A program made the translations under genes and the position numbers. Below are positions 21,863 to 21,948 of a stretch of 64,000 bases of DNA, piece after piece. The DNA comes from Escherichia phage MirsaeidiM_Esher1. The stretch lies in sequence record PQ438048.1. One strand, 5' to 3'. The notes beneath the pieces were generated by a model. That model did not search any database and was not told the DNA's origin. It worked only from the letters and a program-made list of their open reading frames with translations. Within the stretch, counting starts at the first letter, position 1, and every line of letters begins with the position of its first letter.

Positions 21863-21948
21863 TGGCGATGAGTATAGGATTTGAACCTATATCGTTCTTT
21901 CGAACACGGATTAACAGTCCGCCGCTTAAACCATTCAGCCAACTCATC
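21863..21948 (-). tRNA. tRNA with type-II architecture and anticodon GUU (Asn-type anticodon, G73 discriminator)
   Basis: Perfect 7-bp acceptor, 3-bp D-stem, anticodon stem GCGGA/TCCGT with loop CUGUUAA, about 15-nt variable arm with GTTC-GAAA-GAAC hairpin, T-arm ATAGG/TTCAAAT/CCTAT, encoded CCA. Confidence 0.5.

Follow-up and report, generated by a model that had tools for sequence, protein, structure and literature searches.

A 64,000-nucleotide (nt) stretch of the genome of Escherichia phage MirsaeidiM_Esher1 (sequence record PQ438048.1), referred to here as the window, carries in its cluster of transfer RNA (tRNA) genes an asparagine tRNA, tRNA-Asn(GUU), with a hairpin in the variable region. 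ARAGORN placed this gene at exactly 21863-21948 on the minus strand (86 nt), with the anticodon gtt at position 34. The Rfam model RF00005 matched it full-length (model positions 1-71) with 62.0 bits (E = 2e-12, local search), above the curated gathering threshold of 29 bits, and the alignment contains a 12-nt insertion in the variable region. The gene was confirmed as a real phage-encoded tRNA-Asn with an extra hairpin arm. Its parts are listed below, where A1 denotes an alignment of 28 distinct long-arm tRNA-Asn sequences and bp stands for base pairs.

21863-21948, minus strand: complete tRNA-Asn(GUU) gene with encoded CCA, 86 nt (ARAGORN; RF00005; GenBank annotation in many phAPEC8-like records)
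21942-21948, minus strand: acceptor 5' strand GAUGAGU, tRNA positions 1-7, with A2:U71 and not G2:C71 (sequence)
21924-21939, minus strand: D-arm, positions 10-25, with 3-bp stem GCU/AGC and a loop containing G18 G19 (sequence; D-stem covariation in A1)
21906-21922, minus strand: anticodon arm GCGGA-CUGUUAA-UCCGU, positions 27-43 (comparison with Escherichia coli asnT)
21913-21915, minus strand: anticodon GUU, positions 34-36 (ARAGORN; Rfam alignment)
21891-21905, minus strand: extra (variable) arm of 15 nt, with 4-bp stem GUUC/GAAC, GAAA tetraloop and 3 unpaired nt, GAU (sequence; RNAalifold; covariation)
21874-21890, minus strand: T-arm AUAGG-UUCAAAU-CCUAU (sequence; Rfam alignment; 100% paired in A1)
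21866-21873, minus strand: acceptor 3' strand ACUCAUC and discriminator G73 (21866) (sequence)
21863-21865, minus strand: genome-encoded CCA end (sequence)

In the RNA sense, the molecule reads GAUGAGU UG GCU-G AAUGGUUU A-AGC G GCGGA CUGUUAA UCCGU GUUC-GAAA-GAAC-GAU AUAGG UUCAAAU CCUAU ACUCAUC G CCA. Every element that the initial annotation had obtained by hand folding is present, namely, a length of 86 nt, a perfect acceptor stem (7/7 pairs), a 3-bp D-stem, a hairpin arm of about 15 nt, the anticodon loop CUGUUAA and G73, and automated folding by ARAGORN returned the same GUU anticodon. The D-stem pairs are G10:C25, C11:G24 and U12:A23, with G13 and A22 unpaired; this D-arm has a class II-style architecture and equals that of the tRNA-Ser(GCU) of the window in size. 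No unpaired nucleotide precedes the stem of the extra arm, and G26 and the anticodon arm (positions 26-43) match E. coli asnT at 18 of 18 positions. By textbook definition, long variable arms are limited to Leu, Ser, Tyr and selenocysteine (Sec) tRNAs (PMC7609411). The combination of a class II shape with GUU and G73 is therefore unusual, as had been remarked: the variable region is longer than 10 nt and forms its own stem-loop, as class II architecture requires, in place of the 4- to 5-nt loop of a type I body, and the anticodon is that of Asn and not of any class II isotype. An error in the third anticodon base, from sequencing or assembly, was ruled out by the occurrence of the same gene in dozens of independent phage genomes. 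Such an error is excluded because the gene is identical or near-identical (>=95% identity) in 66 phage records and because GUU and CUGUUAA are kept in at least 140 distinct homologues.

The tRNA cluster of the window shows 96-99% identity to those of phAPEC8-like myoviruses (Phapecoctavirus, Stephanstirmvirinae), for which many GenBank records already label the gene tRNA-Asn. A sensitive search with the 86-nt gene gave matches in 715 phage records. Genes of 85-86 nt for tRNA-Asn(GTT) were found in phi92 (Justusliebigvirus), in Epseptimavirus and Novosibvirus (Demerecviridae) and in a T4-like Klebsiella phage, and Kuttervirus Maynard carries a normal 75-nt tRNA-Asn whose D-arm is very similar and whose anticodon arm is identical. 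A first pattern scan, for the Asn anticodon arm (with the host-like stem forced) followed by an extended variable region, returned 85 stretches from viral contigs, 80 of them real 82- to 91-nt tRNA-Asn(GTT) genes. The same scan of 185,579 bacterial and archaeal species (one genome each) returned 25 stretches, of which about 10 were real long-arm genes. These "cellular" genes lie mostly in dense tRNA arrays (32-36 tRNAs per 8 kb in three Micromonosporaceae and 7-21 in contigs of metagenome-assembled genomes), an organization in the manner of phages or mobile elements. The three Micromonosporaceae arrays (loci L094, L095 and L099, on Verrucosispora/Micromonospora chromosomes), of 32-36 genes in 8 kb, share a conserved 90-nt tRNA-Asn with a 6-bp arm.

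When the anticodon stem was left free in a second scan, at least 83 further distinct long-arm Asn genes were found among the matches listed, with diverse anticodon stems and from phages of many unknown hosts; the loop was CUGUUAA in 76 of 83 of them, again among the matches listed. Among the tRNA-Asn(GUU) genes collected, at least 140 distinct sequences have the long arm and 120 are of the normal form, and GUU is the single anticodon across all of the long-arm genes. Comparison with the clusters of related phages, a check suggested in the initial annotation, thus showed that long-arm tRNA-Asn(GUU) recurs in several phage lineages. The window gene belongs to a large family of long-arm tRNA-Asn(GUU) that is present in T5-like, T4-like, phi92-like and many uncultured phages and is found almost only in phages. 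Few of the tRNAs in these phage clusters that are neither Asn nor Leu, Ser or Tyr have an extra arm (Thr, 10/99; Cys, 7/48; Met, 8/129; Lys, 4/121), with the loci having been chosen through Asn, a choice that biases the arm frequencies per isotype.

The extra arm is under structural selection. RNAalifold predicted it unprompted from alignment A1, in which the 3' tails beyond the discriminator were set to GCCA in six sequences that lack an encoded CCA, leaving the tested pairs unaffected. Double (compensatory) changes were observed at 4/4 arm pairs, and the inner three pairs are 100% paired; one of the arm pairs, for example, is GC in 9 sequences, UA in 9, CG in 6, AU in 3 and UG in 1. Over the whole structure, 88% of the alignment cells pair, compared with 66% in shuffled alignments (0/500 reached the observed value), and sliding the register lowered pairing from 88% to 33-48%. 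Geometry was compared between 138 distinct long-arm tRNA-Asn and phage tRNA-Ser (n = 155), tRNA-Tyr (n = 77) and tRNA-Leu (n = 128). Within the long-arm tRNA-Asn, the stem of the arm has 3-4 bp in 123/138, the loop has 4 nt in 114/138 and is of the GNRA type in 105/138, and the arm is flanked by 0-1 unpaired nt on its 5' side in 129/138 and by 3-4 nt on its 3' side in 114/138. Covariation, narrow geometry and persistence together point to selection for the arm, without indicating the kind of selection.

In E. coli, Asn identity consists of the GUU anticodon and G73 and is transferable to a different tRNA; G73 acts as an antideterminant against the tyrosyl- and leucyl-tRNA synthetases (TyrRS and LeuRS), and Tyr identity depends critically on A73 and U35 (PMC9976931). 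The anticodon plays no part in recognition by the seryl-tRNA synthetase (SerRS), which relies on the long arm, the tertiary shape, G73 and the acceptor stem, in which Ser determinants have been confirmed and C2:G71 is listed as an antideterminant, and class II tRNAs are discriminated by the number of unpaired bases in the arm (PMC9976931). The window tRNA-Asn carries both published Asn identity elements, and its G73 and GUU are not the A73 and GUA of a tRNA-Tyr. TyrRS and LeuRS are unlikely to charge it because G73 is kept in 127/138 long-arm Asn tRNAs, compared with a discriminator A in nearly all phage tRNA-Tyr (74/77) and tRNA-Leu (124/128). At least three unpaired nt follow the arm in 120/138 long-arm Asn and 63/77 Tyr tRNAs, compared with 14/155 Ser tRNAs; the other 141 of the 155 tRNA-Ser have at most two, and the window gene, with 3 nt and a 4-bp stem, does not have Ser-type geometry. 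Stems of at least 5 bp are found in 116/155 phage tRNA-Ser, compared with the 3-4 bp usual in the long-arm Asn tRNAs. The pair G2:C71, a Ser determinant in E. coli, is present in 150/155 phage tRNA-Ser compared with 54/138 long-arm Asn tRNAs; the window gene has A2:U71, and 59/138 of the family carry C2:G71. Given a register closer to that of Tyr than to that of Ser and the absence of G2:C71 from the window gene, charging by the asparaginyl-tRNA synthetase (AsnRS) is expected, and the identity elements taken together make it highly likely that the window tRNA is charged with asparagine.

The main rival to AsnRS charging is mischarging by SerRS, which would make the gene a serine-accepting missense tRNA that inserts Ser at AAC and AAU codons as deliberate mistranslation or recoding, in the manner of nematode nev-tRNAs or bacterial allo-tRNAs. 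Several findings speak for serine and against asparagine. The long arm and G73 that characterize a SerRS substrate are both present, as are G9 and C11:G24, and a long arm with G73 is treated as a Ser signature in the allo-tRNA literature (PMC5389517), in keeping with the anticodon independence of SerRS. When isotype profile hidden Markov models were applied after deletion of the anticodon arm, the body of the window tRNA scored highest as phage tRNA-Ser (17.1 bits, compared with 14.8 for Cys and 10.6 for Tyr, which are small margins), and Ser was the top profile for 48/137 family members. The tRNA-Ser(GCU) of the window also has a 4-bp GAAA-capped arm, a 15-nt variable region and a D-arm of the same size, so that arm length alone is no bar to SerRS here. 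On the other side stand the complete and conserved Asn identity set with its one anticodon, where allo-tRNAs are reported with diverse anticodons, and the Tyr-like register described above. In addition, G2:C71 is lacking not only in the window gene but in 84/138 family members, and 59 have the antideterminant C2:G71. At one locus, the order in T5 is Cys, Asn (type I), rna3, coding sequence, Asp, and the order in Bas33 is the same except that Asn has the long arm; judging by this gene order, the Bas33 gene is an orthologous replacement of the T5 type I tRNA-Asn, and the long-arm form thus stands in for an ordinary tRNA-Asn. The gene is also the sole tRNA-Asn that ARAGORN found in the window cluster, and proteome-wide Asn-to-Ser substitution would be harmful to the phage's own proteins. 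A GenBank note on T5, according to which an anticodon swap does not make its tRNA-Asn (the type I gene) a suppressor, would fit reading of the anticodon by AsnRS. Serine acceptance is unlikely on these grounds, and the unusual decoding or identity that had been offered as one option is not the best reading of the window tRNA.

The initial annotation had also described the gene as paralogous to the adjacent tRNA-Tyr, with acceptor and anticodon stems near-identical to it, and as a possible Tyr-derived gene; it would then be a recent copy in which A36 changed to U and A73 to G, remolding Tyr to Asn. The neighbor exists (tRNA-Tyr, GUA, A73; 21955-22042, minus strand; Rfam, 39 bits; missed by ARAGORN). 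Apart from the adjacency itself, the acceptor strands agree at 6/7 + 6/7 and the anticodon stems at 4/5 + 4/5 positions with compensatory differences, and the arm has a Tyr-like register with a short stem and 3 unpaired nt on the 3' side. The stem resemblance therefore stood, but it is narrow. Since positions 26-43 equal host asnT and the anticodon stem of the tRNA-Tyr is one compensated base pair away from it, the likeness of the anticodon stems is not special to this phage, and the D-arm, the extra-arm sequence and the T-arm differ. In whole-molecule alignments, the window tRNA-Asn scored 35 with the normal tRNA-Asn of Maynard, 21.5 with the window tRNA-Ser(GCU) and 19.5 with the window tRNA-Tyr, and body identity within the window was 0.68 for Ser(GCU) versus 0.645 for Tyr. 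Across the family, the nearest tRNA within the same genome is scattered among 16 isotypes and is a tRNA-Tyr in a single case, and the nearest isotype pool without the anticodon stem (n = 60) was ordinary Asn in 15 cases, Leu in 8, Ser in 6 and Tyr in 4, which is a weak signal. phi92 has the same Tyr-Asn adjacency, yet its Asn and Tyr acceptor stems are unrelated, and long-arm Asn genes without a Tyr neighbor lie beside Cys in T5-like phages and beside Lys in Roth01. Paralogy to tRNA-Tyr and reassignment to Asn thus found no support, and remolding of this kind is very improbable. Some pairs of long and short Asn tRNAs have acceptor and T-arms in common and are a clean hairpin insertion apart (e.g., L020 versus L158), and the family would most simply have arisen by gain or loss of the arm within Asn tRNAs, with Tyr not favored; tRNA bodies are too short for ancestry to be read from their similarity. 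In T5-like phages, the D-arm of the tRNA-Cys beside tRNA-Asn (L002 1413-1488, L117 9547-9622 and others) almost matches that of the long-arm Asn tRNAs (UGGCUGAAUGGCUUAGGCG), and Cys is the runner-up profile for the window tRNA body; shared ancestry of the 5' halves may be the reason.

On balance, the window gene is probably a functional phage tRNA for AAC/AAU codons, charged with Asn by the host AsnRS, and one of a phage-borne family of tRNAs with GNRA-capped long arms. GUU and G73 would supply the E. coli Asn identity set, G73 would bar TyrRS and LeuRS, and the short stem, the 3 unpaired 3' bases (a Tyr/Leu-type register) and the lack of G2:C71 would disfavor SerRS. The arm, in turn, might make the replacement tRNA a poor substrate for defense nucleases that dock on the anticodon stem and the D-loop face, such as AriB of the PARIS system, and AsnRS, the modification enzymes and the ribosome would still meet an anticodon arm that is entirely host-like. 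The known strategy is mutation of the anticodon stem-loop, and the arm would then be another way to the same end. Evasion of host tRNA-targeting defense nucleases is put forward tentatively as the likeliest purpose of the arm. It is also possible, with similar reserve, that the arm is a structural shield that constitutes a second general escape route from tRNA-targeting immunity: a short GNRA-capped hairpin set into the variable loop, near the AriB cut site and on the D-loop face, would obstruct nucleases that recognize the tRNA body. Long-arm Thr(UGU) in T5-like phages, and the less frequent long-arm tRNAs for Trp, Glu, Lys, Cys and Met in phage tRNA clusters, would then have the same explanation.

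AriB cuts host tRNA-Asn between positions 40 and 41 (PMC12409363). The window tRNA-Asn contains the host-type cleavage context U36-A-A-U-C/C41 (slash, cut site) and, with positions 26-43 equal to asnT, has no evasive mutation of the anticodon stem-loop; a steric shield is plausible, since only 3 nt separate the cut site from the base of the arm. Previous work has shown that the T5 tRNAs for Lys, Thr and Asn jointly neutralize PARIS and that U39A or A41C in tRNA-Lys blocks AriB cleavage, and a second AriB protomer was modeled on U16-U17 of the D-loop (PMC12409363). T5 proper has normal-length Asn, Thr and Lys tRNAs, all changed at position 39; long-arm Asn tRNAs of enterobacterial phages retain the host U36AAUC/C41, and T5-like phages such as Bas33 have a long-arm Thr(UGU) with U36AAUCA41 and U16, as in host thrU. 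Bas33 (MZ501074) has no tRNA-Lys(UUU), and the T5 tRNA-Lys alone rescues it from PARIS (PMC12409363), which implies that its own long-arm Thr and Asn tRNAs keep working under AriB. The PARIS data and the Bas33 sequences together suggest that the arm could shield a tRNA from anticodon-stem nucleases.

Rescue from PARIS by "T5 tRNA-Asn" was not accepted as direct evidence for the long-arm form, as the T5 gene has a normal length of 78 nt and a mutated anticodon stem. Likewise, the report that the "tRNA-Asn" of Bas34 itself is insufficient (PMC12409363) was not taken as evidence against the arm. That gene (L239 14599-14681; Bas34/SelmaRatti) is a broken Asn/fMet chimera, which joins 55 nt of the long-arm Asn type (51/55) at the 5' end to 28 nt at the 3' end that agree with the initiator tRNA-Met of the T5 type (27/28); it is probably a deletion junction between two tRNA genes. 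This chimeric structure, which leaves only 4/7 acceptor pairs, accounts for the puzzling Bas34 result. An association of the arm with a host-like site among Asn tRNAs (Fisher p = 1e-7) was discarded as invalid, since the search pattern had forced a host-like stem.

A number of observations weigh against a role in nuclease evasion. The unbiased test of arm against host-like site, possible for Thr(UGU), was not significant (Fisher p = 0.10), the effect of AriB on tRNA-Asn is only secondary (PMC12409363), and the long-arm Asn of Bas33 has C16, which alone may be enough to impair AriB. Kuttervirus Maynard has the host-identical anticodon arm without an extra arm. As the family spans many unknown hosts and diverse anticodon stems, no single nuclease explains it, and any shield must act on a class of enzymes and not on AriB alone. 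The arm could instead be a neutral or merely stabilizing insertion with no defense role, on a tRNA that supplements Asn decoding by codon compensation. The result for Thr, the retention of a normal tRNA-Asn with a host-like anticodon arm in some phages, as in Maynard, and the GNRA-capped arms of many phage Leu and Ser tRNAs would agree with this explanation. However, the strong compensatory covariation with fully paired inner arm pairs, the narrow geometry of the loop and 3' linker, and the persistence of the arm across very distant phage lineages, with near absence from cellular housekeeping tRNA sets, argue against neutrality, which appears unlikely. A nontranslational role, as a decoy or competitive inhibitor of a tRNA nuclease or tRNA-binding defense protein, or as a substrate of a phage enzyme, would draw on the suggestion in the PARIS paper that overexpressed viral tRNAs inhibit AriB by competition; a host-identical anticodon arm would be good bait, and the gene is linked to a homologue of RNA3, a tRNA-like RNA. 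Such a role is improbable in view of the perfect 7/5 acceptor/T architecture, the encoded CCA, G73, G18 G19 and UUC, which are family-conserved and are what a charged, ribosome-competent tRNA needs, and of the substitution for an ordinary tRNA-Asn at the same locus. A function as an aminoacyl donor for DNA hypermodification was rejected as unsupported, the relevant paper dealing with glycyl-tRNA and Mom.

Directly 3' of tRNA-Asn in the window, at 21735-21855 on the minus strand, lies a homologue of T5 RNA3, annotated there as a "putative tRNA-like RNA." Its local alignment with T5 RNA3 scored 60, compared with 19 +/- 3.4 in shuffles, and it contains a 7-bp stem resembling that of an acceptor (GGACUUG/CGAGUCC) and a hairpin resembling a T-arm, whereas a normal anticodon arm is lacking. 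An RNA3-type element follows tRNA-Asn in T5, Bas33 and phi92 as well, so Asn and RNA3 form a module common to siphoviruses and myoviruses. Inside the element, 21756-21845 is a tandem duplication of 45 nt with copies 98% identical; the duplication may be absent from some close relatives, which cover only 93-94% of this region. The neighboring tRNA-Tyr has an irregular D-arm (UAAUUCCGUAGGGGUAGCGGG) and is listed as "tRNA-Pseudo-GTA" in one related GenBank record. A 90-nt tRNA-Ser(UGA)-like gene with an aberrant D-arm lies at 22264-22353 on the minus strand; it was missed by ARAGORN and scored 37 bits, below the threshold, with the Rfam tRNA-Sec model, and the annotation of phi92 lists the homologue there as a pseudo tRNA-Ser(TGA). 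The tRNA-Thr(UGU) of the window (21539-21614, minus strand) is of normal length and has UAAGCA at positions 36-41 (U39G), where host thrU has UAAUCA. This change is the one found in T5 tRNA-Thr(UGU), at a position whose mutation blocks AriB cleavage of tRNA-Lys. Two copies of a repeated 23-nt module (21234-21270 and 22362-22398; 87% identical), with minus-strand promoter-like TTGACA, 18 nt, and TATAGT or TAGATT, sit upstream of tRNA-Gly and of tRNA-Ser(UGA). These modules are probably promoters that split the tRNA cluster into transcription units.

Further noncanonical tRNAs were seen in the phage clusters. An 87-nt long-arm tRNA-Thr(UGU) occurs in T5-like phages (L240 14775-14861 [Bas33], L012 4406-4492 and L050 8998-9084); its D-arm is class II-style, its extra arm has a 3-bp stem with a GNRA cap and 4 unpaired nt on the 3' side, and its anticodon stem is host-like. 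Candidate long-arm genes for Trp(CCA), Glu(UUC), Ala, Gln, Gly, Pro and Lys(UUU) were found at L013, L020, L030, L043, L054, L071, L075, L076, L089, L102 and other loci, and Ile(UAU) genes of 92-95 nt carry 22- to 25-nt insertions; introns or artifacts are possible in both cases. In phi92 (L001), the gene at 1326-1401 that is annotated Lys(TTT), upstream of Tyr-Asn-Thr, was reported by ARAGORN as "tRNA-??? (tt)" and has a nonstandard anticodon loop. The three isoacceptors targeted by PARIS are all contained in the resulting phi92 run, Lys(UUU)-Tyr-Asn(GUU)-Thr(UGU).

As the gene is already annotated as tRNA-Asn in related phages, it is not new in itself; its class II shape and the large phage-specific family are apparently undescribed. 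Literature searches, together with papers on PARIS, OLD, Schlafen, Sf14, noncanonical tRNA, allo-tRNA and Mom and an eLife 2023 paper, gave no mention of a long-arm tRNA-Asn family or of variable-arm effects on defense nucleases, and evasion through the shape of the tRNA body was not described in the literature searched. One paper lists a phage tRNA-Asn-GTT with an "inconsistent" isotype score. The family sits in well-studied phages (phi92, T5-like phages of the BASEL collection and T4-like Klebsiella phages), where it is annotated merely as tRNA-Asn. It departs from the treatment of the arm as an identity mark of the Leu, Ser, Tyr (and Sec) synthetases. How the class IIb enzyme AsnRS accepts a class II-shaped tRNA with SerRS kept off would be useful for identity rules and for orthogonal tRNA engineering. 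If tRNA body shape does serve as a counterdefense to PARIS-like systems, it would matter for host range prediction and the design of phage therapy, and charging with serine, if it took place instead, would make the gene the first natural missense tRNA of the Asn-to-Ser kind to be found in phages.

Compared with known systems, the window gene shares with the E. coli tRNA-Asn genes asnT, asnU, asnV and asnW the anticodon GUU, the loop CUGUUAA, G26 and the entire anticodon arm, G73, the 7-bp acceptor stem and the 5-bp T stem. The host tRNA has a type I body with a 4-bp D-stem, a 5-nt variable loop and U1:A72, whereas the window gene has a 3-bp D-stem, the 15-nt arm and G1:C72. T5 tRNA-Asn(GUU) is likewise a phage replacement tRNA-Asn with G73 that lies in a tRNA cluster and is followed by an RNA3-type element, but it is a 78-nt type I tRNA with a mutated AriB site (U32; GUU at 39-41), in contrast to the host-like site and arm seen here. 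With the bacterial class II tRNAs for Leu, Ser and Tyr, the gene has in common the 3-bp D-stem and a long arm with a GNRA-capped hairpin, in a register that matches Tyr. It differs from them in its Asn anticodon, with G73 excluding Tyr and Leu, and its register, shorter stem and A2:U71 are unlike those of Ser.

The nev-tRNAs of nematodes (PMC3333845) and the allo-tRNAs of bacteria (PMC5389517) also combine a class II shape with an anticodon that is not that of Leu, Ser or Tyr. They are, however, derived from and charged as Leu or Ser/Ala, with varied anticodons at odds with the amino acid carried, and allo-tRNAs have 8/4 or 9/3 acceptor/T geometry. The window gene has 7/5 geometry and one conserved anticodon, its identity set matches that anticodon, and its G73, in place of A73, sets it apart from a Leu-derived body with Leu determinants. 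Phage tRNAs that evade nucleases by anticodon-loop or anticodon-stem mutation (PMC10264068; T5 tRNA-Lys versus AriB) are, like the window gene, phage copies of defense-targeted tRNAs. In the window tRNA-Asn, however, the anticodon arm is unchanged from that of the host, and evasion, if any, would be achieved by the shape of the tRNA body.

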